DNA of 61,579 nucleotides from a virus (lineage: Duplodnaviria > Caudoviricetes). Below, piece after piece: positions 2,477 to 59,063 of this stretch. Position 1 is the stretch's first letter, and each line of letters begins with the position of its first letter. Under the pieces are notes generated by a model that was not told where the DNA came from, made no database searches, and saw only the letters and a list, made by a program, of their open reading frames with translations. The stretch covers positions 1 through 61,579 of the IMG/VR virus record IMGVR_UViG_3300031965_000028, one strand, 5' to 3'. The position numbers were made by a program, and so were the translations under genes.

Positions 2477-3013
2477 TTACGCACCGGTCGCCGCCGCCTC
2501 GGATACCGCCTCCTCCTTCACCGGCACCGCTTTCACCGCCTTCGCTTTCTTCCCCTTCGCCGCCTTCGCGCTCCCCGGCTTCGTCCCTCTCATCTCCGCT
2601 TCCACCGCCTGCCGCTGCTTCTTCCCGCCGAACTTCTCGATCTCCGCCAACGTCATCACCTTGCGCTCGACCCTCAGCACCAGCGCCTTCAACCGGCTGT
2701 CGTGCCCCGGCGTGAACCGGCTCTTGGTCATCTGGTCGCATCCGCAGGCGCACGGACGTTCCGGCTTCGGCTTGAACACGCGCTTCTTCGCCAGCGTCGG
2801 GAGCTTCCCGAGCCCGCTCTTGGTCTTGCCGGTTGCCGCTGCCGCCTTCTTCTCCTTCTCCCGCTTCCGTTCCCTCATATTGACCACCTTCGCTACCTCC
2901 GACAGGGCCTCGTTCGCCTGTCCGACCGTCTCGAACACAGGAGCCTCGGTTGCCGCTGTTCCTGCCGCTTCCGCTTCCCGTCGCGCCTTGTTCTCTCGTG
3001 ACTTTCTGCTCAT
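2477..3013 (-). CDS. Lys/Ala-rich CxCGC...F.PGHD zinc-binding protein (paralog 1)
   Basis: CACGCDQMTKSRFTPGHDSRLK; AAGGAGG RBS. Confidence 0.8.
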   Translation of the reverse strand: MSRKSRENKARREAEAAGTAATEAPVFETVGQANEALSEVAKVVNMRERKREKEKKAAAATGKTKSGLGKLPTLAKKRVFKPKPERPCACGCDQMTKSRFTPGHDSRLKALVLRVERKVMTLAEIEKFGGKKQRQAVEAEMRGTKPGSAKAAKGKKAKAVKAVPVKEEAVSEAAATGA

Positions 3014-3128: not shown

Positions 3129-3191
3129 TGTCCTCTCTCTATTACACCCACCGTCTCCGAGAGGCTACACCCGTGTCCTCCGGAGAGTACA
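3129..3191. promoter_or_regulatory. Three phased 18-bp TGT-N12-ACA-type boxes (3129-3146, 3152-3169, 3174-3191)
   Basis: TGTCCTCTCTCTATTACA, CGTCTCCGAGAGGCTACA, TGTCCTCCGGAGAGTACA; start-to-start 23 and 22 bp; intergenic. Confidence 0.7.
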
Positions 3192-3255
3192 ACCGCGTGC
3201 CGGGAGCCGCCCACCGCCCGATCAAGAGCAACAGCGGTGCCAGCGGCGTCCACTT

Positions 3256-3489
3256 CTAGTGCTCGTGTGGCTCGCCCGTGTCGCAGAACACGCATGTTGG
3301 ATCCTTCTCCTGTGGCATCGAGTCTATCAGCTCGTCCACCGAGTCCTCTTCCCAGTCACCATCGATGTCGATCTCACTGCGCGGACACTCCCGCCGTATC
3401 TTGTCCAGCGCCTCCGCTAGAGCCAGGTCCACATCGTGCGTGTAGTCCGGGTTGCAGTAGATCGTCTTGCTCGCAACTTGTCGGCTCAT
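3256..3489 (-). CDS. Hypothetical acidic protein
   Basis: ORF coupled to upstream ORF (ATGA overlap). Confidence 0.55.
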   Translation of the reverse strand: MSRQVASKTIYCNPDYTHDVDLALAEALDKIRRECPRSEIDIDGDWEEDSVDELIDSMPQEKDPTCVFCDTGEPHEH

Positions 3490-3812: not shown

Positions 3813-3842
3813 ATTCTAACTCTGCTGTTGCCCTCGTGTCAA
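3813..3842 (-). promoter_or_regulatory. sigma-70-type promoter TTGACA-N18-TAGAAT
   Basis: Near-consensus hexamers; spacer shares GCAACRGCAGAGT with promoter at 52079-52108. Confidence 0.8.
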
Positions 3843-4721: not shown

Positions 4722-5135
4722 TAGCGTTCCACTAGATGCCCGAAGCAACGTGCCTCAATGTCCCCCCACTCGGAGGTTCACTCGAGGCCCGTCCTCCGGG
4801 CATCCGTGCAACTCTAGCTGTAGGCTCACTCGAGCCTTTGAAAGTTCCCAATTCCAACCTCCGCCTTTTTCGAGGCTGGTTCCGGCACGCACCAATAGGG
4901 GCCTTTGCATTCGTTCCCGCAACCAGTTTCGCCAATAGCTCGCGCCACCCTATCGCACTATCCACACGTCCTCTCTGCGAGGACTGGTGAGCCTTGTCAG
5001 ACTTGCCGTGTATGCTCTTATTCGGGGTGGTAGGGCACGTCCTCTCTTCGAGGATCATTGGCTTACCGCTAATTGCGCCGCCATGCACCTTAGAGATTTC
5101 CCTAATGCGCTCCGTATTCAGTTATCAAGGACCAA
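4722..5135 (-). ncRNA. Putative ~410-nt structured leader/ncRNA downstream of sigma-54 promoter
   Basis: No convincing CDS; stem GATGCCCGGAG/CTTCGGGCATC (G-U on minus strand); duplicated TCCTCG(A/C)AGAGAGGACGTG hairpin; boxA-like TCCTTGATAACTGAATA near 5' end. Confidence 0.5.
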
Positions 5136-5263
5136 CGTTGCCAGATCCCTTCGATCTTCTCGCGCCTTTATTTATCCCGCTCTCCAAAGACCTTGGGTCG
5201 GCAGATTCTGTCTGCACGATTGTCCTCTCGCGGGGGCGGGGCGCGGGCCGCCGCCGGGGATAA

Positions 5264-5279
5264 TGCAAGGGGCGCGCCG
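5264..5279 (-). promoter_or_regulatory. sigma-54 (-24/-12) promoter
   Basis: CGGCGCGCCCCTTGCA: GG-N10-GC with TTGCA; followed by TTATCCCCGG shared with the second promoter. Confidence 0.7.
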
Positions 5280-5624
5280 GGCGCATTCATTTCAAGGTTC
5301 GGCGGGATGGGCGGTCAAGGTTCCAGCATAAAGTAGAGGGCCGTCCCTCGGGCCTCGAGTTTATAATGGAATGTTGAGAAGGCGTGCGCTCGAGTCCTTC
5401 GAAGGGTGTGCGCGTAAGGATGATGATGGAGAGATGTGTGCGTGTGCGCAGCGACGTTATGTGAGGAATGTTGAGGAATGTATGCTTGACATTCGAGGCA
5501 GTTTCCTCCCTCCACGAACCGGCGTGCCTCGATCAGAGGTCTGAGTAGAAGCGGTAATGTCTCTTTATTTCTCTGACATCCGCTCCTTCACCTCTCGTCT
5601 ATCCAAGAGGTCAAGGAGAGGATC

Positions 5625-5649
5625 GAGGTGGGATGTTGAGTCCCGCCTC
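5625..5649 (-). terminator. Hairpin downstream of 5666-6022 gene, possible terminator
   Basis: GAGGCGGGA-N7-TCCCACCTC imperfect stem on minus strand; weak U-tract. Confidence 0.35.
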
Positions 5650-5665
5650 GTGCCTCAGCCCCGTG

Positions 5666-6022
5666 CTATCCGACGTTCTCGAGGACTTCCGCGATCGCGT
5701 CCTCGACCGTCTCCGCCTCGACCTTCGGCTTGCGCGTCGCCTTGGCCGCCTTCACTGGCACCGTCGCGATGTTCCAGCGCTTGAGCAGGGCCGCGTCCTT
5801 GAGCCCCGCCTCGACCGCCTTCCTGCAGCCCTTGCCTGCGTGCTGCTCGATCTCCGCCAGCGTCATCGCGCCGCGCTGGACCCTGATGATCGCTGCCTTG
5901 AGCTGGCTGTCGTGACCGGGACAGAACGTGCGCTGGGTGGTGCCGCCGCATCCGCAAGAGCACGCGCGGAGCGGACGGGTGCGAGCGGACGACGGAAGCG
6001 CGGGCAATGAAGAGAGTGCCAT
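5666..6022 (-). CDS. CxCGC...F.PGHD zinc-binding protein (paralog 2); start reassigned to MALSSLP
   Basis: CSCGCGGTTQRTFCPGHDSQLK; AAGGAG RBS before ATG at 6022. Confidence 0.8.
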   Translation of the reverse strand: MALSSLPALPSSARTRPLRACSCGCGGTTQRTFCPGHDSQLKAAIIRVQRGAMTLAEIEQHAGKGCRKAVEAGLKDAALLKRWNIATVPVKAAKATRKPKVEAETVEDAIAEVLENVG

Positions 6023-6124
6023 TGTGATTCTCCTTGGTTCGGTTGTCAATACCGACATCGACGGAATGCCGATGCCCCGGCAGCGGGACCGGCCGCGATT
6101 GCCGCGCCCCGCACCCCGGGATAA

Positions 6125-6140
6125 TGCAGACGCCGTGCCA
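6125..6140 (-). promoter_or_regulatory. sigma-54 (-24/-12) promoter
   Basis: TGGCACGGCGTCTGCA, one mismatch from TGGCACG-N4-TTGCW consensus; intergenic, about 100 bp upstream of 6022 start. Confidence 0.8.
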
Positions 6141-6168
6141 ATCGCCGCGCCCGGGAGACGGCCCGCAT

Positions 6169-6241
6169 TGTCCTCGGGGGAGTACAGCGCGTGTCCTCTG
6201 CGGATGACGTGGGCGTGCGCGGGTGTCCTCGGTGGGATACA
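6169..6241. promoter_or_regulatory. Three phased TGT-N12-AC(A/G) boxes (6169-6186, 6192-6209, 6224-6241), candidate enhancer (UAS)
   Basis: TGTCCTCGGGGGAGTACA, TGTCCTCTGCGGATGACG, TGTCCTCGGTGGGATACA; spacing 23 and 32 bp; upstream of sigma-54 promoter. Confidence 0.7.
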
Positions 6242-6544: not shown

Positions 6545-6574
6545 TTGACAGCCCTCGAACGCGCATGGTACTCT
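6545..6574 (+). promoter_or_regulatory. sigma-70-type promoter TTGACA-N18-TACTCT
   Basis: Hexamers seen upstream of rightward arm. Confidence 0.6.
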
Positions 6575-6775
6575 ATGAGTAGAGAAGTGGAGAGAGACCC
6601 TGCCCGCGCGCCATTTGCCTGCGACTGCGAAGCAGGCGGAGGTAAATTAGGGGGAATGCCGAGATTACCTTTGACCCGTTGAACGGCGCGCAGCGCGCGG
6701 CATTCAACGTATGGCACACGCTTCTCGACATTCCTCACCGTTGACTCCCCGCCACGTCTCCCTGCCGCTCCTCCC

Positions 6776-6805
6776 TTGACGCTCCTCTAATCCCCGTGCT
6801 ACTCT
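6776..6805 (+). promoter_or_regulatory. sigma-70-type extended -10 promoter TTGACG-N18-TACTCT, leaderless for 6813 gene
   Basis: TGC-TACTCT 7 nt before ATG; no RBS. Confidence 0.65.
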
Positions 6806-6812
6806 TACTACC

Positions 6813-7037
6813 ATGAGAAGGAAACCGGGGGTACACGAAACAGCGCGACGCACGGGCCTGTCTCCCGCCCACATTAGCAAGATTTTCTCCGGCTCGCGTA
6901 TGCCGTCCCTTGCCGCCGCTGCTCTGATTGCCTCTGCCCGCCGCCAGAGCCTGGACTCGCTGTATCGGGAGCTAGTGGAACTGCATAACGGTCCAGAGCA
7001 GCCGGATGGAGAATCGGGCAAGGATGTGGCCGCATGA
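6813..7037 (+). CDS. XRE/Cro-type helix-turn-helix regulator
   Basis: ETARRTGLSPAHISKIFSGSRMPSL. Confidence 0.85.
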   Translation: MRRKPGVHETARRTGLSPAHISKIFSGSRMPSLAAAALIASARRQSLDSLYRELVELHNGPEQPDGESGKDVAA

Positions 7038-7666
7038 GCCGCCCTCGAGCTAAAACCAAACTAGCGCCGCTCCCCCCGCTGTCGAAGAAGCCTCGAGCCA
7101 ACCCACCCAAGAGACATAAATTCGTACCGGAGATCGGGCGCAAGCAGCGCGATTCCGGTGCGATGATTATAGACGTGAAGAAGGCACGGGAGGGGGCAAA
7201 GATAGCTGAGGAAACCGTCAGTGTGGTTGCTGCGGACGAGCTCGACGCGATGCTCACCGAGGACCTCAAGGGGCGCAAGATGAAACTGCTCTCCCCCGAG
7301 GAGAAGGTGTTCATCATCGAGGCATACGCCAAGGGCATCTCGATGAAGCGGATCGGGGCGAAGCTCGGCCGTAATCACGGGGTCATCAGCAGGTTCCTCG
7401 ACAAGTACCGAACTACTGTCCCAATGGCGCGGTTGCACTTCGAGGCGAATGCGGAGAGGCTAGCGAGCCGCGTCACTAAACGCGCCAACGTGGTCGAGGC
7501 GCTGGAGGTGCTGGACCGGATCGACGTTCTCCCGAAGAAGCAGCGGGAAGACTCCAACTCCAAGATGCAATTCAACGTCATCGTCGGGATGCCAGGGCAG
7601 CAACAGGCGGTGATCGTGCCGCCGAGCCAGAAGCAGGTAGAGGCGGCGGCGGAAGGCGGGAAATAG
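7034..7666 (+). CDS. terS: Probable terminase small subunit (HTH)
   Basis: HTH (GISMKRIGAKLGRNHGVISRFL), position upstream of TerL, typical C-terminal beta tail. Confidence 0.55.
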   Translation: MSRPRAKTKLAPLPPLSKKPRANPPKRHKFVPEIGRKQRDSGAMIIDVKKAREGAKIAEETVSVVAADELDAMLTEDLKGRKMKLLSPEEKVFIIEAYAKGISMKRIGAKLGRNHGVISRFLDKYRTTVPMARLHFEANAERLASRVTKRANVVEALEVLDRIDVLPKKQREDSNSKMQFNVIVGMPGQQQAVIVPPSQKQVEAAAEGGK

Positions 7667-10784: not shown

Positions 10785-12680
10785 ATGCCTAGACAAACCG
10801 AAGCTGACCGCATCAAGCTCTGGGAGCGCCGTACCACTTCCGCCAACAAGCTATACGATAAGTGGTCGGAGCGGTACGAGACGAAGCTGCTGGAAGACTA
10901 CTATCTCGGGAAGCAGTGGAAGGGGCTGGCGGAGGAGGATGCCCAGAAGCGTTATGTCATCAACCTCGTATTCTCCTCCCTCGAAGTAAATAAGCCCGCG
11001 CTGATCTTCCACCGCCCACAGGTTCGTGTACAGTCGCGTCCGGAGAGAAGCGATGACTTGGGCTCGATGTCCGAGGACCGCTCCCGTATCTCTCAGGACA
11101 TGATCCAGACCTTTATCGACGATCCTGACATCGATTTCGCGCTCGAAACCTCCCTCGCTCTTCAGGAGGCCCACTTTAGGTTCGGAGTCATCGAGGTAGG
11201 CTACACCGCCGATTTCATTGACAACCCCAACGCCGGTAAGCCGGTCCTAAAAGAAGATAAGGACGAGCCGGTACGGGATCGAGATGGTAAGGAGGTGCTC
11301 CAATCGGATCGTATCGTCTCTCACGAGAATCTCTTCATCAAGCGCGTTCCTGCCTCCACCTTCCGCTGCTCCCTCTCGTCCAAGAACAAGATGGCGCGGA
11401 ACGACTGGGTAGGATACTACGAGTGGCATTACGTTGAGGATGTCAAGCGGAATAAGAACTATAAGAACACGGCGGGGTTAAAGCCGACCGGGTTAATTGC
11501 GAAGGACCTGCGGTCGGACGGCGATGGTGATCTGGAATCCGAGCAGCATCATGGTATGGTGAAGCTGTGGAAGGTGTGGGATTTACGTTCGGGTACCCGC
11601 CACGTTCGCGCGGAAGGTCACCCTAAGTTCCTGCTCGAGGATGTCAAGTATAAGTTCCTTCCTTTCTCCGTTATCAAGTTCCACGAAGTCCTCGATTCCT
11701 TCTACCCGCTACCGCCCGTCTACCAGTGGCTGGGACCGCAGGACGAGGTTAACGAGACGCGCGAGATGCAGCGGGCGCATCGGAGGCGATTCTACCGGCG
11801 CTATACCTACCAGGAAGGGTCGATTGATGAGACGGAACTGGAGAAGCTGGAATCAGGGGGAGACGGGGTATACGCGAAGTCGAACCAGCCCGATCCTCTC
11901 CACCCGGTTGCCGATGCCCCGTTGTCCTCCGACGTATGGCAGCATCTCGACGAGTCCAAGCAGGACTTCATGGCGGTATCAGCCATTGGCGGCGATCAGC
12001 GCGGGGTTGCAGAATCTGAGACTGCTACCCAGGCTTCCATCATCGATGTCCGCTCCCGCCTTCGTGAGTCCTCCGCCCGTACCCGCGTTGCTGACTGGCT
12101 GGCCAGCGTTTCTCGTCTGATCCTTCTTACTGTTCGCGAAAATATGGCGCTACCATTCTGGATCAAACACCAGGTGGATATGATTGCAGCACAGGCGGCA
12201 GGACCGGCAGAGGCGCAGAAGGTACAGGAGCTGTGGAAGCAAATTAAATCAGAAGACTTAGGCGATATGGATTTAGAGGTATATATCGACCTCGCTTCCA
12301 TGTCTCCTGTCACCGAGGACGTTCAGCGCAATTCCTGGAATCAGGTGCTGGCGTTGCTGACCAACCCTCAGATCCTGATGCTGATGGCGCAATCGGAGGT
12401 GATATTGCGCAAAACTCTTACCCTATATGGGGTCCGCGCCGAGAACGAGATCCAGGAAATCAAGAAGGTGGCGCAGCAGACAATACAGATGATGCAACAA
12501 CAGGCAGCAGCGGAAGCAGCGGCGAAGGCGAAGCTACCGGGTAGTGCTGGGGCGCTATCAGAGGCGGCAGCAGGAGCGGGAGGAGCATCACCCGAAGGTA
12601 CCATGAGCGAAGTCGGCGGCACCCCAATGGCTCCGGAGCTGGCGGCGATGGCAGAGGCAGCGGGCGCGGGGATGCAGTAG
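10785..12680 (+). CDS. Portal protein
   Basis: 631 aa after TerL; INLVFSSLE, TATQASI motif, podovirus-type portal features. Confidence 0.85.
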   Translation: MPRQTEADRIKLWERRTTSANKLYDKWSERYETKLLEDYYLGKQWKGLAEEDAQKRYVINLVFSSLEVNKPALIFHRPQVRVQSRPERSDDLGSMSEDRSRISQDMIQTFIDDPDIDFALETSLALQEAHFRFGVIEVGYTADFIDNPNAGKPVLKEDKDEPVRDRDGKEVLQSDRIVSHENLFIKRVPASTFRCSLSSKNKMARNDWVGYYEWHYVEDVKRNKNYKNTAGLKPTGLIAKDLRSDGDGDLESEQHHGMVKLWKVWDLRSGTRHVRAEGHPKFLLEDVKYKFLPFSVIKFHEVLDSFYPLPPVYQWLGPQDEVNETREMQRAHRRRFYRRYTYQEGSIDETELEKLESGGDGVYAKSNQPDPLHPVADAPLSSDVWQHLDESKQDFMAVSAIGGDQRGVAESETATQASIIDVRSRLRESSARTRVADWLASVSRLILLTVRENMALPFWIKHQVDMIAAQAAGPAEAQKVQELWKQIKSEDLGDMDLEVYIDLASMSPVTEDVQRNSWNQVLALLTNPQILMLMAQSEVILRKTLTLYGVRAENEIQEIKKVAQQTIQMMQQQAAAEAAAKAKLPGSAGALSEAAAGAGGASPEGTMSEVGGTPMAPELAAMAEAAGAGMQ

Positions 12681-13041: not shown

Positions 13042-13492
13042 TGTCGATTAACTGAGGAGCTGCATATGTGCGACTACCCGATGAGTACCGCCGCCTCTGC
13101 CAAAAAGGAACGGGATTACCGTGCAGAGAGCGACCAGCGCACCTTGATGTCGGCTGCCGAAGTGGTGGCGGACTCGATTCGGATGAAAGCGGCAATGGGA
13201 CTAATGAACCAGAGCCGCAGGGGAATCGACAAGATGCTGGGAATTTTGACCAGCCGCCGTACAAGGACGGCAAAGCTGCGGAAGGCGGCGTACTAGCCGT
13301 GCCGCTAGGTGCTGGAGTCAGGTACCGCATGAAGAAAACCTCCAAGGGTAACGTGCGCCTGGCATTCAAGGGCGGCAAGGTAATAGAGGCGACTCCGATG
13401 GCGGGAGCGCTTGCCGCCCATATCCGCAAGGGAAAGTTCAAGAAAGGGAAGCACGGATAGCGACAGTTAACAATCGATAACCGAGGATCACA

Positions 13493-16934: not shown

Positions 16935-17747
16935 GTGCAACTGCAGCTCGAAGTCACGGCGGTATGCAATGCCGAATGCGTATTTTGCCCCTATCCGACC
17001 ATGAAGCGGCCAAAGGGCACGATGGGTATGACATTGTTCCGCCGTATTATCGACGAGGCTACTACCATTCCCATCATCGATCATATCACTCTTACCGGCC
17101 TCGGGGAAACGCTCCTGGATCGCTTCGTGGTTGACCGTATCCGTTACATCCGTTCCGTGATGCCCGCCGTAATGATCGACCTCTATACCAATGGGACCTT
17201 CCTGCGCCCCAAGATGGTCGATGCTCTTTACTCCGCTGGTCTTTCCGTCCTGTATGTATCTCTTAACGCCGTTACTCGCGACAAGCGCCTGCAGGTCATG
17301 AAGCTGGATGACTTCGACCAGGTGGTGGAGTACATCGAATATGCGATGACCAAGCCCAACTGGAAAGTCGTTGTCAAGGGGATAGTCACCAAGGATTTGA
17401 TGGAGCAGGGAGATAATGAGGAGTTCGCCCGCCGCTGGGGGGGCTCCTATAATGCTGGTGGCAATGCCTTCCTTCACCTGGAGGGCAATTGGGCGGGTGC
17501 GATGTGGCCCATGCGCCTTAAGATGGACGAGCCCTGCGGCCGTGCGCTTAACCAGCTCATGGTACTATGGGACGGCAGAGTAAGCCTGTGTTGCTTCGAT
17601 AGTGAAGGCGAGGAGATTCTAGGGAATCTTAATCATCAAACCTTGCGAGAAATGTACAACGGGGGGCGCGCACTAGAGATCCGTACCGCCCACATCGAGG
17701 GCAGACGACAGGAAATAGGGATATGTGCTAACTGCACCGGAATCTGA
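16935..17747 (+). CDS. Radical SAM protein with SPASM/twitch domain
   Basis: CNAECVFC (CxxxCxxC), GLGETLL, TNG, C-terminal C...DGRVSLCCFD...CANC. Confidence 0.92.
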   Translation: MQLQLEVTAVCNAECVFCPYPTMKRPKGTMGMTLFRRIIDEATTIPIIDHITLTGLGETLLDRFVVDRIRYIRSVMPAVMIDLYTNGTFLRPKMVDALYSAGLSVLYVSLNAVTRDKRLQVMKLDDFDQVVEYIEYAMTKPNWKVVVKGIVTKDLMEQGDNEEFARRWGGSYNAGGNAFLHLEGNWAGAMWPMRLKMDEPCGRALNQLMVLWDGRVSLCCFDSEGEEILGNLNHQTLREMYNGGRALEIRTAHIEGRRQEIGICANCTGI

Positions 17748-17749
17748 CA

Positions 17750-18316
17750 GTGCCCGTATACACCCCCGCCTCTCGTCTGTATGGCCCGTACGCCGGTAAA
17801 GACAACCTCAATCTGGGGTGCGCCTTGAACCACGAGTCGGGCTTTACTAACCTGGATTGTGATGAACGCGCCTGCCCCGATGTCATTCACGATCTCGAGG
17901 TAACCCCTCTCCCATTCCCTGACTCTTCGTTTGATCTAGTCCTCGGCCCTCATGTCTTCGAGCACATCCGCAACATCATTCCGCTTGTCGCTGATATCCA
18001 CCGTATCTTGCGTCCAGGCGGCTACCTTGTCGCCGTCGTCCCTCATGCTGGCTGCGATTCTGCCTGGGACTCTCCCGCCCATGTCCGCTCCTTTACTGCA
18101 GCTACCTGGACTTACTTCGACCGGCGTACCTACGAGAAGGACCATAGCACTCACGGGGCGTGGCAGGGGGCGCTATACCGGGACTGGGATATCATCGGCA
18201 TCATGCTGATCCCCCACAAGGAGTTTACAGGGGATCCGCAGGTGGAGACAAAGGCGCGGCACTGGAGAAACGTTATCAACGAAATTCATGTAACGCTAAA
18301 GGCGGTGAAGCAGTGA
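17750..18316 (+). CDS. Class I SAM-dependent methyltransferase (Methyltransf_11-like)
   Basis: LNLGC, LPFPDSSFD, HVFEH, IHRILRPGG. Confidence 0.9.
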   Translation: MPVYTPASRLYGPYAGKDNLNLGCALNHESGFTNLDCDERACPDVIHDLEVTPLPFPDSSFDLVLGPHVFEHIRNIIPLVADIHRILRPGGYLVAVVPHAGCDSAWDSPAHVRSFTAATWTYFDRRTYEKDHSTHGAWQGALYRDWDIIGIMLIPHKEFTGDPQVETKARHWRNVINEIHVTLKAVKQ

Positions 18317-18996
18317 AAATGGTGGCCAATCGGACAGCGGAGAGTGTGAACCGGGAAATAAACGCGGCCAGGGCCGCTGGTACCCCGATTGAGCTTCCCT
18401 CTGCCCGAGAGTTTGCTCCTCGATCCGCTCGTGGGTTCGGTGATCGAGTAGAGCGTACTTTTAGCCCATTCCTGGGCAAGGATAACCTTAGCCTCGGATG
18501 TGCGCTCAATCATGAACCAGGGTTCACCAACCTGGACTGTGACTCTCGTGCACGCCCGGATGTCCTCCACAATATGGAGGTCACCCCGCTTCCCTTCCCT
18601 GATAATTCCTTCGACTGCGTACTAGCCAGCCACTCGCTGGAGCACGTCCTCAATCTCATTCCTCTTGTCGCTGACGTTCACCGTATCCTGCGCCCCAACG
18701 GTTATTTCCTCGCTGTTACTCCTCACGCTGCCTGCAATATGGCATGGGATTCTCCGCACCACGTTCGGGGATTCACCGAGGGCACCTGGGTTTACTTTCA
18801 GCGCAGCACGTACGAGAATGTTCACGCAGGCTATGGGGCCTATCAGGGCGGCGACTACCGGGACTGGAATATCATCCAGATTGCCCTGGTCCCGTTCCCC
18901 GAGTTCCGTGATGATCCCGATCTCGATTACAAAGTAAAGCATCTTCGTAACGTCGTTCACGAGGTCCAGGCGGTTCTCCAGGCCGTCAAGAAGTAA
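18313..18996 (+). CDS. Class I SAM-dependent methyltransferase, tandem paralog
   Basis: LSLGCALNHEPGFTNLDCD, LPFPDNSFD, HSLEH, VHRILRPNG; GTG start overlapping upstream stop. Confidence 0.9.
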   Translation: MKMVANRTAESVNREINAARAAGTPIELPSAREFAPRSARGFGDRVERTFSPFLGKDNLSLGCALNHEPGFTNLDCDSRARPDVLHNMEVTPLPFPDNSFDCVLASHSLEHVLNLIPLVADVHRILRPNGYFLAVTPHAACNMAWDSPHHVRGFTEGTWVYFQRSTYENVHAGYGAYQGGDYRDWNIIQIALVPFPEFRDDPDLDYKVKHLRNVVHEVQAVLQAVKK

Positions 18997-39969: not shown

Positions 39970-40461
39970 CTACCGCTCCCGGTCCATGTCTATATCGTCT
40001 ATCAGCCGCCCCACCTCTTTTGCCCAATCTTCCGAACATTCTTCGTAAATGGCATCAAGTACCCCCTCGGCCGCACGGTCTGCATGACTTCCTACCCCGT
40101 AGCGGTTGATAAAGGTGTAAGCCTCGATCAGATCGGCAAGGCGGAACACCTTGTAGGCAGGCTCGCTGATCATAGTTGCCATCGCATCCTGTAGCAACCA
40201 TGGACAGAAAACGGCAGAATTGGGGATGGTAATCTTGTTCTTGGCCGGAGTGGGAATATCGCCGGTACGAGACTCGTCCGCATCGTGGCACAGGACGTGG
40301 AGGACTGCTTCGAGAGGAAAAGGAGTAGAGGTACGGGCAGCGAGTTCGAGGGCGATAACCAACACCCGAAATACGTGGTCTGATACCGTCTGTTGTTTCA
40401 GGGTAGGCACAATCGTCCATCTTGGAACTATTGATAAAGCTAGTAAGTCTGTTAGTCGCAC
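39970..40461 (-). CDS. datZ: HD-domain dATP triphosphohydrolase (DatZ-like, YfbR fold)
   Basis: RWTIVPT..QTVSDHVFRV...HDADESRTGDIPTPAK...ADLIEA; linked to purZ. Confidence 0.85.
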   Translation of the reverse strand: MRLTDLLALSIVPRWTIVPTLKQQTVSDHVFRVLVIALELAARTSTPFPLEAVLHVLCHDADESRTGDIPTPAKNKITIPNSAVFCPWLLQDAMATMISEPAYKVFRLADLIEAYTFINRYGVGSHADRAAEGVLDAIYEECSEDWAKEVGRLIDDIDMDRER

Positions 40462-41506: not shown

Positions 41507-44137
41507 CTAATCCTTGAGCTTCCCCCAAGACTGTGCGAACGATCCGCTTGATTTGACTGGGACCCGTAGCTTGGTAACATCGGTCATACCTCTTAGGATA
41601 ATGGGGGCTACATCCTCCCCCAGCCCTTCCAGTATCTCGAACATCAGACTATCGTGGATCTGCACGATAAACCTTACTGCCTTCCCATAGTCCCACAGTT
41701 GCTCCCACAGCCATCCCATGGTCCGTTGTAGCATTCCCTGTGCTCCGCCCTGGATCTTGTGCGAGTGCGTCTGCCGCTGTGCCTCCCACCTCTCCCACTT
41801 GTCCTCACTGAAGATCGCCGGTAGATACCGCTGCATCCCCCAGCGGTCCTTGATTACCCCTCCCGCTCTCCGGCACTCCTCATGGCACCCGGTCATATAG
41901 GTCTGAACCCCCGGATATAGCTTGAACCATTCTTTCCTCAGCTTGGCTACTCCGTTTAAATCCCATCCCTCGCACCCGGCCATGCGCAGCTGGTCCAGCA
42001 GTCCCTGGTCCTGTATTCCCGTGATGACCCCGAATCCTGCCCGCTTGCTAGGATACCGGTGCTTCATCTTATGCACCTGATCGTACGGGACCCCGAAGAT
42101 CTTGGAGGCGGTATCGGTATGGATGTCGATCTTGCCATCGTTGAATAGTCGTACCAGCCGTTCATCCCTGCTCTCGTCCGCCATGACCCGCATCTCGGCC
42201 TGATCCAGGTCTGCTTCGAACAGCTCGTACCCCTCTTCGGCCCGGTAACAGTCTCGCACCGACTTGCCTAGTTCGTTACGCACCGGAATAGCAAGGAGGG
42301 GAGCACTGGGGCGGTCATCGAAGGCGGTAGCAGAGAAGCGACCGGAGGAGACGCGGGTAATTTTAAGGTCGCACACCACGCGAGTCGAGGCTAGCTTTTC
42401 CGGCCAATTCTCTAGCACCGGGTCCACAAACGAGTCCCGTACTTTCTGGTGCTCTCTCCATTGTTCTATCTGCTCGATAGCCTCGTCCTCGAATCGCAGG
42501 TGCTCTATGGACTTCTTGCTCGTGCTCATTTTGCCGGTCGATGTCTTCTTCTCCCCTCTGAGCCCGCGCCTCCGCATTAACGTTGCCACCTGATCGGAAG
42601 ATGCTGGGTTGAACGGTCGTCCTTGGAAGTAATTCCTAGAGATCCCATCCCGTATTAACCCCATCTTCTCCGTCATCTCTTCGCCTAGCTTCTCGAAGGA
42701 CGCGCGATCGCCGGTAATCCCGTTGATCTTCATGCTCACCGCAGCGGGCAGCATGCGCATCTTCATAGTCATCAGCGAGTCCAGCCCAGCAGCGGAGATG
42801 GCGGCCTTCATCTTGGGATACAGGCGGAGGTTGGCATCGGGATCGCGGCCAGCGTAGTAGACGGCATCAGCTAGAGGGATATCGGCCAGAGTGCCGATGG
42901 GAAACGCGCCTAAATCCTTCTCTACTATTACTCGCAGCTCTCTGTCCACCTTCTTCCAGCGCTTGTGGGGGTCGGTCCTCCTTCCCTCTTTGTCCAGCTT
43001 CTCCGAGTAGTAATCTACTAGGATCGCTTCAGCCCTGCGCTGGACCGGCTGAGGAGTATACAAGTGCGCGCTACCGTCATTCTCGTGCTCTACTCGCGCT
43101 TCCGGCTTCCCCCACTTTCCCTCCATCACCCTTTCTAGATACCCCAGCTGCTTCTCCAGCCCCGCCTGCCCCACCGTCTCCGCGTAGTCCTTCATCACCA
43201 TTCCGCAGTGGCGGCGGGCGAGGTTCTTGAGGGACTGTGGCTCGACGCACAATAGATACGCCGCCATCATGGTATCGAAGATATCCACCTCGATGTCGTA
43301 GAGGAAATCGAGGCCCAGCCCTAGGCACATCTCGAAGTCATAGAGAGCAGGATGGACCACCAGCACCGGCTTCTTCTTCTCCAGCTTCTCTCGGAGCAGT
43401 GCGATGGCGCGAGAGAAGCGCGGGTGCCCCTTGCGCAAAACGAGGCCGGTTCCGGGGGCTACGGAGACTTGGACCGACCATTCGGAGCCCGGTACTCCCT
43501 CGGTGTCCAGCCCGACCGCACCTCCAGCCGCGCCCTCCTCCATCCCGCCCAGATACCAGTCGAAATTGCTGTCATCCAGGTCGAAGTACTGAGGCTTAGG
43601 ATGTAGGTCTATAGGAGGATCTACCGGTAGCTTGCCTTTAATTGCGGCAGCGGCACGCGCGTAGTCCCAGGTGACGAGCGGTAGAAGATCCTGATTATAG
43701 AAGGGGCTTGCAGGATGGTAGCAGGGGAGGATGGTAGCATCATAGCCAGCACCGTCCGACCAGCGGTGAGGAATGCCGTGGATGGCCTCCAGGTAGGCGG
43801 ACTCACCAAGGAAGAAGCGAGTAGAGAGAGCCCCAGCGGTGATGATGAACTTGGGCTTGATCTTGCGCAGCTCCGCTAATAGTACCGGCCCCCACTTGGC
43901 TACATCCTCGGGTTCGGGATAAGGGTTCCCCTGCCGGTACTCCTTCATCAGGTTTGTGAGCCAGCCGTCACGCCGGTCCAGCCCATTCCGCTCCAGGTGC
44001 GCATCCTGAGCCTGACCAGTGCGGCCTACGAACGGACGGCGACGGTGCGCCTCTTCCTCGCCCGGTGCTTCCCCTACTATGGCCCACCGCGCCTTGGGGT
44101 TGCCTTCGCCCGGAACGATAATACCAGTAGCGGCCAC
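41507..44137 (-). CDS. polA: Family A DNA polymerase with N-terminal UDG-family (SPO1-type) domain; candidate Z-selective polymerase
   Basis: GEAPG..E....PFVG..G and YHPA (UDG); LDTE/LYD/YAGRD exo motifs; DLDQAEMR, RYPSKRAGFG, QIHDSL. Confidence 0.93.
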   Translation of the reverse strand: MAATGIIVPGEGNPKARWAIVGEAPGEEEAHRRRPFVGRTGQAQDAHLERNGLDRRDGWLTNLMKEYRQGNPYPEPEDVAKWGPVLLAELRKIKPKFIITAGALSTRFFLGESAYLEAIHGIPHRWSDGAGYDATILPCYHPASPFYNQDLLPLVTWDYARAAAAIKGKLPVDPPIDLHPKPQYFDLDDSNFDWYLGGMEEGAAGGAVGLDTEGVPGSEWSVQVSVAPGTGLVLRKGHPRFSRAIALLREKLEKKKPVLVVHPALYDFEMCLGLGLDFLYDIEVDIFDTMMAAYLLCVEPQSLKNLARRHCGMVMKDYAETVGQAGLEKQLGYLERVMEGKWGKPEARVEHENDGSAHLYTPQPVQRRAEAILVDYYSEKLDKEGRRTDPHKRWKKVDRELRVIVEKDLGAFPIGTLADIPLADAVYYAGRDPDANLRLYPKMKAAISAAGLDSLMTMKMRMLPAAVSMKINGITGDRASFEKLGEEMTEKMGLIRDGISRNYFQGRPFNPASSDQVATLMRRRGLRGEKKTSTGKMSTSKKSIEHLRFEDEAIEQIEQWREHQKVRDSFVDPVLENWPEKLASTRVVCDLKITRVSSGRFSATAFDDRPSAPLLAIPVRNELGKSVRDCYRAEEGYELFEADLDQAEMRVMADESRDERLVRLFNDGKIDIHTDTASKIFGVPYDQVHKMKHRYPSKRAGFGVITGIQDQGLLDQLRMAGCEGWDLNGVAKLRKEWFKLYPGVQTYMTGCHEECRRAGGVIKDRWGMQRYLPAIFSEDKWERWEAQRQTHSHKIQGGAQGMLQRTMGWLWEQLWDYGKAVRFIVQIHDSLMFEILEGLGEDVAPIILRGMTDVTKLRVPVKSSGSFAQSWGKLKD

Positions 44138-47443: not shown

Positions 47444-47473
47444 ATTGTAACACACCTATGGGTGTGGCTGCAA
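47444..47473 (-). promoter_or_regulatory. sigma-70-type promoter TTGCAG-N18-TACAAT
   Basis: TG-extended -10, 6 nt upstream of ATG. Confidence 0.6.
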
Positions 47474-47477
47474 TACC

Positions 47478-47687
47478 CTAGCCATCCGCGTTCTCTCCAT
47501 CCGGCACTCGGCCGAGAATCGTCACCATGTTCGACACGCATGCCGATATCATCACCTTCTCTCCGTTCCTCAGCACCACTACCCGCTGCTTCTGCCCCGC
47601 GTGACTGACCGCTACTATCTGGTCTATCTCCACGTAGACGTAGCCGATAGGGTAACGCTCGAGCTTCTCTAGCCGTAAGTTAGGCAC
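47478..47687 (-). CDS. Small hypothetical protein (FlbD-like beta pattern)
   Basis: VYVEIDQIVAV...VVVLRNGEKVMI. Confidence 0.55.
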   Translation of the reverse strand: MPNLRLEKLERYPIGYVYVEIDQIVAVSHAGQKQRVVVLRNGEKVMISACVSNMVTILGRVPDGENADG

Positions 47688-52371: not shown

Positions 52372-52868
52372 TTCCTTCGTCGGTTAATCCTTGCTATCAT
52401 TGTAGTTGAGACTTCGTACTTACGTGCTAGTACGTTGCCTGCTTCCCCTGTCGCCAACCTACTCCTAATATCTAGTACCTCTAGCTCCGTTAGCTTACCA
52501 CCACCGCCATTGGCTTCACCCCTTGCTGTACGTCCTTTATTACACTTATCTCGTACATTATCTATACTGGTACCAAGGAATAGGTGCTTAGGGTTGCAGC
52601 ACGGAGGACTATCACACCGATGTAGTACTTGTCTTTTCGGCCAATACCCTCGTGTTACTCTCCAGGCGATTCGATGTGCTCGTCGAAGGTATTTGCGGCC
52701 TAGAGCGCGTATAGTAAGAGTGCCGTACCCGTCCCTATCCGTACGCGCCGTCCATGGCCAACATTCGTCCGGCCCCCGTATATCAACGTGTAGCCAGAAT
52801 CGCTCGGATAGACTCATGTTTCTACTTCCGTGAAGCTCCTTACCCGCCGAATCGAAGAGCGAAACCAC
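52356..52868 (-). CDS. HNH endonuclease with C-terminal HTH
   Basis: ECWPW, AHRIAW, VLHRCDSPPCCNPKHLFLGT..DN..D. Confidence 0.9.
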   Translation of the reverse strand: MVSLFDSAGKELHGSRNMSLSERFWLHVDIRGPDECWPWTARTDRDGYGTLTIRALGRKYLRRAHRIAWRVTRGYWPKRQVLHRCDSPPCCNPKHLFLGTSIDNVRDKCNKGRTARGEANGGGGKLTELEVLDIRSRLATGEAGNVLARKYEVSTTMIARINRRRNWAWL

Positions 52869-57143: not shown

Positions 57144-58193
57144 TCAGACATCGCAACCGGGCGTACCGGGTCGCCGAAATGGCCCATACGGAACATGACA
57201 TCCGTGACTTACAAGGAACCCCATGAACCGCTTGTAATCCCTATCCGGCATACCAAATAAGCGCACCACGCACCTGTACTGTCCATGCGTCGCAATCAGC
57301 CCCCGTTGAATAAGCATCCTAATATCCTGCCGCACGAGATCACGATCTCGATAGAGCGGATACGCATGTGTCCAGAACGATTGTCCCGGAGTAGTGACCG
57401 CAGCATAAAGTGTATTGGTAAGATGCTGCCGCCGATCCTGTTGCGGCTGTAACTCGGACGACGGTAGCGCTGCCTCGATGTGCTCGATATCAATAACCGT
57501 GTCTGACGCGGCCCACCGTGCACACGTGATGACGTGTTCCAACTCTCGGACATTGCCCGGCCACGCGTACTGTGCCAGGCGCGCGCGTGCGGCCTGCGTG
57601 ATGATCATCGGCTCTGCTATACGAGCAAGGAAATGATCGATCAGGAGTGGAATGTCGGCCCGGCGTTCCCGTAGCGGAGGCACGGCTACCTCAAGCACTC
57701 GCAGTCGATACATCAGGTCGGCCCGGAAGGAGCCTGCTGCGACCATACCGGGTAGATTGCGATGCGTGGCCGCAATCACGCGGGCATCTACTCGCGAAAC
57801 CGTATCCGATCCTACGGGCTGGATCTCCCCGCTTTCCAGGAAACGCAGGAGCGCCGCTTGCATGCGCGGCCCCATCTCCCCGATCTCATCCAGAAAGACG
57901 GTGCCCTGATGAGCTGTCCGCAATTTTCCAGGTCGTTCACGATCAGCGCCGGTGAAGCTACCCCTCAGGTGTCCGAACAACTCCGACTCAAGGAGCGCGT
58001 CCGTCAAGGCCGCACAATTTACAGGTATAAACGCGCGGGCGTGCCGCTTCGACGTCACATGTACGCGGCGAGCGATCAAGTCCTTGCCTACGCCGGTTTC
58101 CCCGGTAATAAGAATCTTGTCGTCGCCAGCGGCCATGCGGTCCACGGATTGTAGTAGCGACTGCGTAGCGTGTGCACCAATGAATACCGGCAT
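57144..58193 (-). CDS. sigma-54-dependent enhancer-binding protein (AAA+ plus divergent Fis-type HTH), no N-terminal sensor domain; start likely MPVFIG
   Basis: ITGETGVGKD, VNCAAL, ESELFGH, GSFTGA, FLDEIGEM, FRADLMYRL, WPGNVREL. Confidence 0.93.
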   Translation of the reverse strand: MPVFIGAHATQSLLQSVDRMAAGDDKILITGETGVGKDLIARRVHVTSKRHARAFIPVNCAALTDALLESELFGHLRGSFTGADRERPGKLRTAHQGTVFLDEIGEMGPRMQAALLRFLESGEIQPVGSDTVSRVDARVIAATHRNLPGMVAAGSFRADLMYRLRVLEVAVPPLRERRADIPLLIDHFLARIAEPMIITQAARARLAQYAWPGNVRELEHVITCARWAASDTVIDIEHIEAALPSSELQPQQDRRQHLTNTLYAAVTTPGQSFWTHAYPLYRDRDLVRQDIRMLIQRGLIATHGQYRCVVRLFGMPDRDYKRFMGFLVSHGCHVPYGPFRRPGTPGCDV

Positions 58194-58334
58194 TGGACTT
58201 ATAGCGCGGCTTTGTGCCGTTATCACAAGAACATCCTTTTGATTAACATGAACGCCCCTAGCAGGAGCGCCCATAAACCTAGTGATATAGCGACGACGGC
58301 CAGAAACGCTGGCCGTCGCCACCTGAACTCGAGA

Positions 58335-59063
58335 CTAGTCCCAGGGACCATTCGGTTTCGTCTCGGACACACACTCGAAGGCCGTAGACCCCACGCTGAA
58401 GCTGCCGCCCACGGCGTCACACTGCTGCAGTGCGCCTTCGCCAGCGCCGGGGAATCCCGTCGTCCGTGTCCACGTCGTCGGTTCGGGCTCCGGCTCGGGT
58501 TCGGGCTCCGGTTCCGGCTCAGGGTCCGGTTCGCAGTCGAGGCACGGCGGATCTACGGGTGGATCGACTGGCGGGGCCACCGGCGGTACCACCGGAGGCA
58601 CGAACGGCGGCGGGGCATCGTTCGCCCCGCGAATCTGGAAGGTGATCCACGGTGTCCACACGCTCTGCCCGTCTCCTCCACACACCCACGTCGCGATACG
58701 AGCTTCGTAACGGCCACTCTCATACGGCCGTTCGACGTTGCCGCCGTCGTGTTCGGTGGTGAAGCGGTCTACGGCGGCTTTGGTTGCCTCAGTGCGCACC
58801 TCAATGGCGTAGAGGGTTGCGCCTGGTACGGGGGTCCACCGGAAATCGACGTGGAACTGCCCTGTAATGGTGTGCCACCCCTGCACGAGGTCATGCGGGC
58901 AGGAGTTCGGTCCCGGCACGAAGCGTGCGGTGTCGGATACCGAGTCCGTGCTCCCCTGTCCACCGGCCCCAGTCACGGGTAACGGTCCAACCACGGTGTC
59001 GAGCGGGGTACTGCCGCATGCGGCGGCGAAAACGGTACTCATGAGTAGTGCTACAATTCGTGT
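58335..59063 (-). CDS. Lipoprotein with Pro/Glu-rich linker
   Basis: MTRIVALLMSTVFAAAC lipobox; (PE)n repeat; AAGGAG RBS. Confidence 0.75.
   Translation of the reverse strand, partial: TRIVALLMSTVFAAACGSTPLDTVVGPLPVTGAGGQGSTDSVSDTARFVPGPNSCPHDLVQGWHTITGQFHVDFRWTPVPGATLYAIEVRTEATKAAVDRFTTEHDGGNVERPYESGRYEARIATWVCGGDGQSVWTPWITFQIRGANDAPPPFVPPVVPPVAPPVDPPVDPPCLDCEPDPEPEPEPEPEPEPEPTTWTRTTGFPGAGEGALQQCDAVGGSFSVGSTAFECVSETKPNGPWD

Follow-up and report, generated by a model that had tools for sequence, protein, structure and literature searches.

Candidate sigma-54-type promoters, dyad boxes and a PspF-like activator gene in the genome of an uncultivated soil phage

The 61,579-nt stretch of DNA analyzed here, which we call the window, comes from an uncultivated soil phage. 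[quoted passage not shown] The zinc-ribbon-like protein encoded behind P6125 matched only unnamed phage clusters in a protein atlas, and neither an Rfam family nor a tRNA was found in the window. In addition to these elements, the phage encodes a PurZ/MazZ/DatZ set; therefore, adenine is probably replaced by 2-aminoadenine (Z) in its DNA.

Table 1 Elements of the leftward arm, the activator gene and associated sites in the window.
Feature	Position	Strand	Details
178-aa paralog of zinc-ribbon protein	2477..3013	-	behind P3227 and boxes
Box	3129..3146	-	TGTAATAGAGAGAGGACA; centre +78.5 from P3227
Box, perfect consensus	3174..3191	-	TGTACTCTCCGGAGGACA; downstream of P3227, centre +33.5
P3227, third sigma-54-type promoter (predicted)	3227..3242	-	TGGCACCGCTGTTGCT; sole strict-consensus match in window
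P5264, sigma-54-type promoter (predicted)	5264..5279	-	CGGCGCGCCCCTTGCA; 2 mismatches
Conserved non-coding element	5453..5555	-	~175 bp upstream of P5264
118-aa zinc-ribbon-like protein gene	5666..6022	-	behind P6125; LPxLP..CxCGCG..FxPGHD; RBS AAGGAGAA
GC-rich stretch right behind TTGCA/CTGCA	6090..6124	-	TTATCCCGGGGTGCGGGGCGCGG; contains the 14-mer shared by P6125 and P5264
P6125, sigma-54-type promoter (predicted)	6125..6140	-	TGGCACGGCGTCTGCA; 1 mismatch to TGGCACGNNNNTTGCA
Box 1	6169..6186	-	TGTCCTCGGGGGAGTACA; minus strand TGTACTCCCCCGAGGACA; centre -63.5
Box 2, weakest copy	6192..6209	-	TGTCCTCTGCGGATGACG; minus strand CGTCATCCGCAGAGGACA; centre -86.5
Box 3	6224..6241	-	TGTCCTCGGTGGGATACA; minus strand TGTATCCCACCGAGGACA; centre -118.5
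XRE-type HTH gene, divergent	6813..7037	+	HTH_3 5.1e-07; main rival candidate box binder
Uncertain -24/-12-like word	47469..47484	-	TGGCTAGGGTATTGCA; intergenic, co-oriented
Phage bEBP gene	57144..58226	-	360 aa from GTG 58226; 350 aa from ATG 58193
Gap ahead of bEBP gene	58227..58337	-	hairpin GGCGACGGCCAG..CTGGCCGTCGTCGC, RBS AAGGA

The original prediction placed two leftward -24/-12 sites at 6125-6140 and 5264-5279 together with a 14-mer common to both, and the letters agree: the window has just two copies of the 14-mer, TGCATTATCCCSGG, located at 5254-5267 and 6115-6128. The sigma-54 promoter consensus has been printed as TGGCACN5-7TTGCT (PMC12316311). With the start position set 12 nt after the GC, transcription is predicted to begin near 6114, 5253 and 3216, which gives P6125 a leader of 92 nt up to the ATG at 6022. 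P5264 has a predicted leader of 288 nt and no upstream boxes, and P3227 begins 14 nt past the stop codon of the gene at 3256-3489. This third promoter and its two boxes (at 3129 and 3174) had been overlooked originally. A sigma-70 reading of TGCATTAT was rejected, as a scan gave no sigma-70-like site at 6125 or 5264. The word at 47469..47484 is without the GC-rich stretch, and no counterpart of it was found in relatives.

Two viral contigs, G1 and G2, are syntenic with the window (major capsid protein 75%, portal 59%, large terminase 55-61%, XRE 48-58%). They hold seven further intergenic, co-oriented sites of the same kind, two of which, both in G1, match TGGCACG-N4-TTGCA perfectly (12/12 consensus). 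The conservation test proposed for related phage contigs supports the promoter motif, which recurs in both. All ten strong sites of the three phages lie between genes and point the same way as the small-gene arm, and the window sites have 0-2 mismatches over the 12 specified bases; GG-N10-GC is present in 10/10, TTGC in 9/10 and an A after the GC in 9/10. The GC-rich stretch after TTGCA/CTGCA is likewise common to nine of the ten. At nine of the ten sites, a predicted leader of 37-203 nt connects the start to an ORF of 40 aa or more that has an RBS; leaders to paralogous genes have 83-106 nt at four sites and 203 nt at P3227. The CGGCGCG variant of P5264 also precedes a paralog in G2, and at the loci L009 and L010 sites lie 123 and 130 nt ahead of zinc-ribbon gene matches.

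Words with at most 3 mismatches from the promoter consensus number 45 against 47.5 expected, indicating no enrichment. A rough PWM, drawn up for this analysis and not a published matrix, gave the three window sites scores of 16.7, 15.6 and 11.0, and the best score in shuffled sequence had a mean of 14.3 and a maximum of 18.3. In this PWM scan, of the kind suggested as a check in the original prediction, the two best hits of the 61.5-kb window both fall between genes and share the orientation of paralogous genes, intergenic DNA making up ~10% of the window. Their scores lie within the shuffle range. The strict pattern TGGCAC-N5-TTGCW occurs twice in G1 against 0.02 expected (maximum 2 in 300 shuffles) and once in the window against 0.067. 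A word score or count by itself carries no proof for the promoters, and the chance-level values in the window are a point against the explanation that we prefer below. The promoters exceed chance because of their position and conservation, as the same motif recurs in two related phages. Judged from sequence, the -24/-12 elements look like a genuine class of promoters that this phage shares with its two syntenic relatives, and the sites are very probably sigma-54-type promoters, for which we infer sigma-54 dependence.

The three 18-bp boxes claimed upstream of P6125 are found there with spacings of 23 and 32 bp, and the claimed distance of ~55-130 bp computes to a span of -55 to -127 from the start. 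The box pattern is enriched in the window, with 14 matches against 4.7 expected and none of 100 shuffles reaching 14. G1 contains five boxes (at most 2 mismatches). They form two clusters, one immediately ahead of P16114 and the other ahead of P18623, with the orientation seen in the window, and their centres (-65.5/-88.5 and -53.5/-74.5/-98.5) are close to those in the window (-63.5/-86.5/-118.5). The phased copies at P6125, P16114 and P18623 have spacings of 21-24 and 32 bp, with centres from -53.5 to -118.5. G2 has no boxes in 13 kb; box conservation in related contigs holds, therefore, for the two G1 promoters and not for G2. Moreover, the box sequence differs between the window and G1, TGTACTC..GAGGACA against TGTCTCC..GAGGTCA. 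Most enhancers lie at -80 to -150 from the start, and the boxes here (-53 to -118) are nearer. Upstream boxes accompany only three of the ten strong promoter sites and are absent at six others, and at P3227 the order is reversed, with the pair downstream of the promoter; both observations count against an enhancer. At 20 nt past the box 3129..3146 there is a CGGCAC, but with TAGAG instead of TTGCA. On sequence grounds, we place the reading of the boxes as an enhancer of the phage activator slightly on the doubtful side of even.

The protein encoded at 57144-58226 has an AAA+ sigma-54 activator domain followed by a helical C-terminal domain of ~95 aa, without an N-terminal sensor domain. It matches Pfam PF00158 (E 7.2e-61, 205 bits, cut-off 20.2) and AAA_lid_14 (2.2e-20), and alignments of 8 and of 42 relatives show no variation in its Walker A GETGVGKD, in FLDEIGEM or in GSFTGA, the loop that in such proteins contacts sigma-54. 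A serine at position 2 of GAFTGA occurs in about 2/10 of EBPs, ~20% of 5350 EBP sites (PMC12316311, supplementary file 2, motif 3). The structural model (pLDDT 78) has its best PDB matches in FlrC, ZraR, FleQ and PspF at E ~1e-21 and also matches NtrC1, NifA and DmpR, all listed activators falling at E 1e-19 to 1e-21. The 25 listed NCBIfam matches to named equivalogs (NtrC, NifA, PspF, NorR, RtcR and others) are all below cut-off, the best among those listed being NorR with 298 bits against a cut-off of 476. By sequence and modeled fold, the protein is a sigma-54 activator of the PspF-like kind that falls outside the named bEBPs, and the phage bEBP originally proposed at 57144-58193 is supported as a sigma-54 activator by domain, motifs and fold. 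The gap ahead of its gene contains no -24/-12 site, which suggests separate expression of the bEBP.

The C-terminal domain is modeled with a pLDDT of 90.6 as five helices, of which the last two form a helix-turn-helix-like pair. Pfam HTH_8 (Fis-type) was not detected in it even at E 10, no PDB sequence matched it and a Foldseek comparison with the PDB returned nothing at E 0.001 or better. In VIA, the DNA-binding domains of NtrC4 (Z 4.0, 59/68 residues) and TyrR (Z 3.7, 61/61) were tied with unrelated helical proteins, appearing weakly within the top 26 of 48,161 chains. The pattern T-x-G-x-Y..LFGM..DYKRF resembles the HTH_8 pattern.

Along its full length, including the C-terminal domain, the bEBP is 45-57% identical to a family that these searches found only in Acidobacteriota, a large unnamed family of ~390-aa activators in Vicinamibacteria. 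This distribution indicates that the host is probably not E. coli, and the E. coli framing of the original prediction is unfounded. An RpoN DNA-binding domain is present in four of the five Acidobacteriota genomes holding the activator family, the candidate host clade. The cellular family shows hardly any variation in the presumed recognition helix, DYKRF(L/M)xFL, yet the boxes differ between the window and G1, which again counts against an enhancer, and 19 cellular loci of the family showed neither a shared sigma-54 site nor a box.

Searches for a relative with both the bEBP and the promoters, anchored on the bEBP in viral and metagenome contigs, found none. Two scans of viral contigs gave only relatives of at most 49% and 37%, and the metagenome contigs gave 80 loci of at most 59%, where other phage genes were absent save one lysozyme-like match. 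Two activators of 72% identity, P0004 and P0005, lie on short contigs. Records of relatives contained no bEBP (0/5 and 0/5), with the two close ones being only 24% and 13% complete. Among GenBank phages, DNA comparison gave no close relative, large terminase matches were at most 31%, and tblastn with the bEBP led for the most part to fragments or to bacterial contigs carrying a wrong label, none of them reaching 60% identity. Single-protein searches with the 7034 protein and with the large terminase found nothing. Thirteen distant terminase loci share only the large terminase (with an adjacent HTH gene in five) and no promoter family, and of the nine loci found with the zinc-ribbon profile, seven fall outside the close relatives and lack a convincing site ahead of the gene.

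The original reading of a complete cis and trans sigma-54 system is partly supported. We propose, and regard as evenly balanced, that the phage's own bEBP and host sigma-54 fire P6125, P5264 and P3227, with the boxes as bEBP sites. The leftward small-gene arm would be read, from the divergent control region, from these at least three sigma-54-class promoters, on which host RNA polymerase and host sigma-54 would sit as a closed complex. Opening would require ATP hydrolysis by an enhancer-binding AAA+ protein, and the phage would provide it as a sensor-less PspF-like activator whose gene lies behind its own short gap. The C-terminal helical domain of the activator would most likely bind the 18-bp dyads TGTAYYC-N4-GAGGACA as dimers, in two or three copies that are separated by two to three helical turns and lie shortly ahead of some promoters, and three dimers may form one hexamer beside the polymerase. 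Promoters without boxes could be activated by dissolved protein once its level is higher, or via another element. We infer the activator as the protein that binds the boxes, and likewise the timing of phage sigma-54 transcription.

The alternative that survives best keeps the promoters sigma-54-dependent and assigns the boxes to another DNA-binding protein (the XRE-type protein, one of the lysine/alanine-tailed zinc-ribbon proteins or a host factor) that would serve as a repressor, roadblock or co-activator on a subset of promoters, while the bEBP would act from solution or through some other element, e.g. the conserved 100-nt element. We consider this unlikely. Most promoters are box-less and the P3227 boxes lie downstream, as this explanation would have it, and the XRE protein has a clear HTH_3 domain and diverges between the window and G1/G2 as the boxes do, while the bEBP C-terminus has no recognized DNA-binding family. 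However, the boxes of both phages occur only beside -24/-12 sites, all facing the same way and at distances that agree, which fits an enhancer better than an operator, and the G1 boxes lie 4.6-7 kb from the XRE gene with none in the XRE-proximal control region. The two or three phased dyads also suit a dimer-to-hexamer assembly as in NtrC-type activators. In favor of a different bEBP target, box-less promoters have another conserved upstream element in common: in G1 and G2, four promoters without boxes are preceded, at 186-331 bp, by copies of the 5453..5555 element, whose RNA consensus fold is weak (-6.2 kcal, one compensatory pair).

It is quite unlikely, in our view, that the bEBP mainly reprograms host sigma-54 genes and that host activators fire the phage promoters early, leaving no closed circuit. 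The identity of the bEBP to the Acidobacteriota family along its whole length fits such a role, and the near-invariant C-terminal helix suggests shared targets, but these are unproven in that no sigma-54 site or box was found near the cellular homologs. The bEBP gene lies ~9.4 kb downstream in the same arm, which poses a bootstrapping problem if the bEBP is the sole activator of the arm; against this, its own upstream gap and hairpin permit independent early expression. Phage YuA uses a host sigma-54 promoter, apparently without a bEBP of its own (PMC10914365), as host activation would allow, yet promoters and activator in one genome most simply mean self-use.

We find it improbable that the bEBP and the sigma-54 promoters are a phage adaptation to transcribe Z-DNA through ATP-driven opening. 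Reports describe sigma-70-type factors as sensitive to the replacement of A by Z, and a Z:T pair is harder to melt; if this reading were true, a set of takeover genes would no longer depend on adenine recognition at the -10 element. Finally, it is very improbable that the words are a phage motif for some other factor or a leader or DNA element whose likeness to the consensus is coincidental in GC-rich DNA: neither counts nor scores in the window rise above chance, the motif runs on into a GC-rich stretch foreign to the sigma-54 consensus and the 7034-7663 protein faintly resembles sigma-70 region 4 (5.9e-4, well short of the cut-off), but GG-N10-GC is invariant and two perfect sites occur in G1, the sole known role of a GAFTGA-type AAA+ protein, such as the one encoded here, is activation of the sigma-54 holoenzyme, and no RNA polymerase or sigma-54 gene is found among the 124 ORFs of at least 110 aa.

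The proposed circuit of phage bEBP and host sigma-54 resembles several known systems. PspF at the pspA promoter (E. coli phage-shock) and HrpR/HrpS also consist only of an AAA+ domain and a C-terminal part, DNA-binding in these proteins and presumably so in the phage bEBP, and lack a sensor at the N-terminus. Structures of PspF rank with the best fold matches of the phage bEBP, and the psp enhancer has tandem upstream sites, like the boxes here. In contrast to PspF, the phage activator is virus-encoded and presumably works on viral promoters, its C-terminal domain is not a recognizable Fis-type HTH and its boxes lie nearer the start; no PspA-like negative regulator was identified in the phage. 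The sites of NtrC/NtrC4 and TyrR are, like the phage boxes, TGT...ACA-ended 18-bp dyads in two or three copies ~2-3 helical turns apart, and the fold likeness of NtrC4 and TyrR to the phage C-terminal domain is weak and not above background. The phage half-site TGTNCTC, however, is new, and TyrR works with sigma-70. Pseudomonas phage YuA also has a sigma-54-type promoter on its genome that is used in infection (PMC10914365). It is a single one, and the passage cited names no YuA bEBP, whereas here at least three per genome occur and the phage encodes an activator. The E. coli phage protein Htm (Gp204) is an AAA+ protein with a fold like RtcR/PspF/NtrC that was proposed to act on the sigma-54 polymerase and, according to its authors, has no GAFTGA loop or DNA-binding domain (bioRxiv 10.64898/2026.10.06.757011), unlike the phage bEBP with its GSFTGA, its C-terminal domain and matching promoters in its genome.

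In agreement with the original statement that no characterized phage example is known, literature searches turned up no phage that combines a bEBP of its own with cognate promoters, and this would be the first described virus-borne sigma-54 enhancer system. Sigma-54 transcription with enhancers is seen as a means by which cells keep genes tightly shut and gated by signals; a self-contained, virus-encoded enhancer-dependent transcription circuit would, if true, be the first of its kind. If confirmed, it would represent a new route of phage takeover, with zero-leak promoters turned on by one phage protein, and a compact, portable set of activator, promoter and enhancer from a little-studied phylum. 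It would also make testable how 2-aminoadenine-DNA phages get their genes transcribed, and it would offer a first functional handle on the unnamed family of ~390-aa activators in Vicinamibacteria.

The three 18-bp TGT...ACA boxes and the two leftward σ54-type (-24/-12) sites of the original prediction, P6125 and P5264, were all present where it had placed them, as was the sequence shared downstream (TTATCCC(C/G)GG, directly after both sites). We also observed a third and better site, P3227, which it had missed. P3227 begins 14 nt past the stop of the gene 3256-3489, with the next gene 203 nt downstream, and the genes behind P6125 (5666-6022, 118 aa) and P3227 (2477-3013, 178 aa) are paralogs. 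By number, -24/-12 words are not above chance, with 45 at ≤3 mismatches in the window vs 47.5 expected. The strict TGGCAC-N5-TTGCW occurs once vs 0.067 expected. In an RpoN weight-matrix scan of the genome, with a rough weight table, the scores (16.7, 15.6 and 11.0) lie inside the range of shuffled windows (mean best 14.3, maximum 18.3), but the two best matches of the entire window are intergenic and co-oriented with the paralogous genes. The weight of these words is raised because intergenic DNA makes up only ~10% of the window. After P5264, ~290 nt lack a convincing ORF (4966-5260). Palindromes of the form GTCCTC-N5-GAGGAC/T occur twice there, at about 4962-4980 and 5030-5048, and a GAGGACA half-box stands alone at 5221-5227; this stretch may be a structured leader or hold more protein sites. 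A promoter scan gave a σ70-like promoter, TTGACA-18-TAGAAT, within the leftward arm (3813-3842(-)), and by eye two rightward TTGAC(A/G)-N17/18-TACTCT sites precede the XRE gene (6546-6580(+), 6777-6812(+)); the arm is therefore served by more than σ54-type promoters.

The 118-aa zinc-ribbon protein encoded behind P6125 has 354 relatives at E ≤0.001, and a profile of eight family members led to nine viral loci. In two of these, a -24/-12 word lies upstream of the homolog match, TGGCACGACGATTGCA by 123 nt (L009) and CGGCGCGGCGCTTGCA by 130 nt (L010), while no convincing word was found upstream of the homolog in the remaining 7/9. The two loci belong to contigs G1 (23.8 kb) and G2 (13.1 kb), which are syntenic with the window (identity of 75% for the major head protein, 59% for the portal, 55-61% for the large terminase and 48-58% for the XRE protein). 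G1 contains five -24/-12 sites (11905, 12627, 13388, 16114, 18623), two of them perfect TGGCACG-N4-TTGCA, and G2 contains two (6814, 7795) plus a weak third with TTGAA (5774), all intergenic and oriented with the small-gene arm. The motif is thus conserved in related phage contigs as seven further strong sites. Strict matches in G1 number 2 vs 0.02 expected, with a shuffle maximum of 2 (n=300). Across the 10 strong sites of the window, G1 and G2, GG-N10-GC is present in 10/10, and TTGC and the A that follows in 9/10 each; 9/10 run on into GC-rich sequence (CCGGGG..GGGG) that lies outside the σ54 consensus and spans the predicted start. A matrix built from these sites found no others in the 61.5-kb window, so that, along the leftward arm, the promoter class does not extend past the opening few kilobases. 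Taken from these sequences, σ54 dependence of the window promoters is very likely. The promoter family was not seen in 13 loci of more distant terminase relatives, which have only the large terminase in common with the window, and the adjacent HTH gene too in 5/13. At L196:8606 (minus strand), in a distant terminase relative, AGGCACACCTGTTGCG and then ggtgggcggtaggcggc resemble P3227 and its downstream stretch; this record is 80% complete and a bEBP was not seen in it.

Several of the promoter sites head paralogs of the zinc-ribbon protein, and family members are repeatedly found behind -24/-12 promoters. The family has no Pfam entry and shows LPxLP and CxCGCG..T..F.PGHD motifs and lysine/alanine-rich tails, with three copies in the window (5666-6022, 2477-3013 and part of 59106-59945) and several in G1 and G2.

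The boxes, including additional ones near P3227 missed by the original prediction, amount to 14 matches in the window vs 4.7 expected, a count reached by 0/100 shuffles. In promoter orientation the sequence of the window boxes is TGTACTC-N4-GAGGACA, whose halves, TGTNCTC and GAGNACA, make up an imperfect dyad. In G1, five boxes read TGTCTCC-N4-GAGGTCA (each ≤2 mismatches), all in two clusters immediately upstream of P16114 and P18623 in the same orientation. Box positions were counted from a start set 12 nt past the GC. The layout, orientation and distance are conserved though the sequence has drifted, which argues for a functional protein-binding unit coupled to the promoter. Boxes are absent at six other promoters, and G2 has none anywhere. 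The two boxes of P3227 lie downstream of it (+33.5 and +78.5), and 20 nt past the second stands CGGCAC, with TAGAG replacing TTGCA, which may be a decayed promoter. That the phage bEBP binds the boxes is a tentative assignment, to which we give slightly less than an even chance.

The box-less P5264, G1 12627 and 13388, and G2 6814 and 7795 have in common a conserved non-coding element of ~100 nt, 174-331 bp upstream, with the core TCAGACCTCTGATYGAGGC..CCGG.TCGTGGAGGGAGG..ACTGCC. It is placed after each zinc-ribbon gene, before the next box-less promoter. Its predicted RNA consensus fold is weak, so it may serve as a terminator or as a site on DNA.

Positions of promoters, boxes, conserved elements and genome parts
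Feature	Position	Strand	Detail
P6125	6140->6125	-	TGGCACGGCGTCTGCA
P5264	5279->5264	-	CGGCGCGCCCCTTGCA
P3227	3242->3227	-	TGGCACCGCTGTTGCT
P6125 boxes (starts)	6169, 6192, 6224		centres -63.5, -86.5, -118.5
Additional box	3174-3191		perfect box consensus
Additional box	3129-3146		
G1 P16114 boxes			centres -65.5, -88.5
G1 P18623 boxes			centres -53.5, -74.5, -98.5
Conserved element, window	5453-5555		
Conserved element, G1	12397-12438		L019:397-438
Conserved element, G1	13104-13202		L019:1104-1202
Conserved element, G2	6564-6591, 7420-7464		L020
Small-gene block	6022 down to 153	-	products of unknown function
Structural arm	6813	+	XRE-type gene
Structural arm	8635	+	large terminase
Structural arm	10785	+	portal
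Structural arm	14468	+	major head protein
Structural arm	20277	+	SU10-type adaptor
Structural arm	near 38249	+	lysis genes
Replication arm	61572 down to 39973	-	
Z-cluster	39973-40461	-	DatZ-like HD hydrolase
Z-cluster	41510-44137	-	PolA fused to UDG domain
Z-cluster	44140-44814	-	MazZ-like diphosphohydrolase
Z-cluster	45705-46976	-	PurZ-like synthetase

The claim of a phage-encoded bEBP was confirmed by a Sigma54_activat domain (205 bits, 7.2e-61) and an AAA lid in the ORF 57144-58226(-), which is 360 aa as called (P0003) and 350 aa from the ATG first proposed. Walker A (GETGVGKD), the σ54-contacting loop (GSFTGA) and Walker B (FLDEIGEM) are invariant across the activator family; serine at loop position 2 occurs in about one-fifth of 5350 EBP sites (MEME output, PMC12316311 supplementary file 2). 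By fold, the activator as modeled with AlphaFold (pLDDT 78) resembles the AAA+ domains of FlrC, ZraR, FleQ, PspF, LuxO, NtrC1, NifA and DmpR, with matches at E 1e-19 to 1e-21. The N-terminal sensor domain is absent and ~18 residues precede the AAA+ core; therefore, the activator has the architecture of PspF. It reaches no named NCBIfam equivalog, and PHROGs places such proteins in phrog_7998, labeled function unknown. The last 95 residues form five helices in a confident model (pLDDT 90.6). For this domain, Pfam HTH_8 was not found even at E 10, a PDB sequence search gave no matches and Foldseek gave none at E ≤0.001. An exhaustive structural search of 48,161 chains placed the DNA-binding domains of NtrC4 (Z 4.0, 59/68 residues) at rank 7 and of TyrR (Z 3.7, 61/61 residues) at rank 26, level with unrelated helical proteins. 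A DNA-binding role of this domain is likely. The activator gene may have its own promoter because a 111-bp gap with a hairpin, without a -24/-12 site, precedes it; this would resolve the bootstrapping problem of a gene 9.4 kb down the arm that it activates. We consider it reasonably probable that the phage bEBP acts on the σ54-type promoters of the window.

The closest activator relatives are two proteins of 71-72% identity on short contigs, followed by a large set of ~390-aa proteins, 50-57% identical over the whole length. In species-representative genomes, 9/80 kept loci match through the C-terminal domain, all nine in Acidobacteriota and mostly in Vicinamibacteria or Vicinamibacterales, and four of five genomes carrying the family have an RpoN DNA-binding domain. 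As far as this kinship of the activator family goes, the host is probably an acidobacterium and not E. coli, in which the prediction had been framed. No common σ54 site or box was found near 19 cellular loci of the family; on cellular metagenome contigs (L034, L036, L047) two genes of the 390-aa family frequently lie side by side. With the bEBP as anchor, scans of viral and of metagenome contigs reached only distant, cellular-looking loci, and no relative with both bEBP and promoters was found among the contigs scanned. Completeness is 24% for G1 and 13% for G2, and G1 stops 677 bp past its homolog of 59106-59945, just before the expected bEBP gene position.

Pfam and PHROG scans divide the linear 61,579-bp record (estimated completeness 77%) into three parts. 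G1 has a homolog of 153-1124 and, 1.7 kb on, one of 59106-59945; the two ends of the window are therefore probably adjacent, which would join the replication arm to the small-gene block as a single leftward arm. No tRNAs or Rfam families were found in the window, and DNA and protein comparisons found no close cultured phage. Besides PurZ-, MazZ- and DatZ-like genes, the replication arm has those for the PolA-UDG fusion, a DNA methylase and a helicase. The helicase gene (52817-55282(-)) is split by an intein that includes an HNH-type endonuclease portion, and there are at least five more free-standing HNH or endonuclease VII genes in the window (16083, 40455, 46982, 48105, 52359). Within the structural arm, the interval between the head and adaptor genes (16935-18993(+)) encodes one radical SAM/SPASM protein as well as two SAM methyltransferases. 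The PurZ/MazZ/DatZ triad has been shown to be sufficient to replace adenine by 2-aminoadenine (PMC8342488). Because the window has these genes, the phage DNA probably carries 2-aminoadenine in place of adenine; that the ATP-driven σ54 system is an adaptation to such Z-DNA is speculation, and improbable.

Phage YuA is reported to depend on σ70 and σ54 and to have one mapped σ54-like promoter (PMC10914365), whereas the window phage has three candidate sites and its own bEBP. Htm, a phage AAA+ protein with a bEBP-like fold, lacks GAFTGA and a DNA-binding domain according to a 2026 preprint (bioRxiv 10.64898/2026.10.06.757011), in contrast to the window activator with its GSFTGA and helical C-terminal domain. 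In the limited full-text collection searched, we found no phage described as encoding a GAFTGA-type activator and also carrying its cognate promoters.

We propose that host core polymerase and host σ54 would be held as a closed complex at P6125, P5264 and P3227. The activator, expressed from its own promoter, would bind the phased boxes as dimers, assemble into a hexamer next to the polymerase and open the promoter by hydrolyzing ATP. bEBPs without DNA-binding domains can act from solution, and the box-less promoters might be fired in this manner at higher activator levels, or via the other conserved element. The genes turned on would encode small proteins of unknown function, including the three zinc-ribbon paralogs. 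The σ54 enhancer mechanism is textbook knowledge; what is new is that it is found in a virus, together with the sequence of the boxes and the family of activators lacking a sensor.
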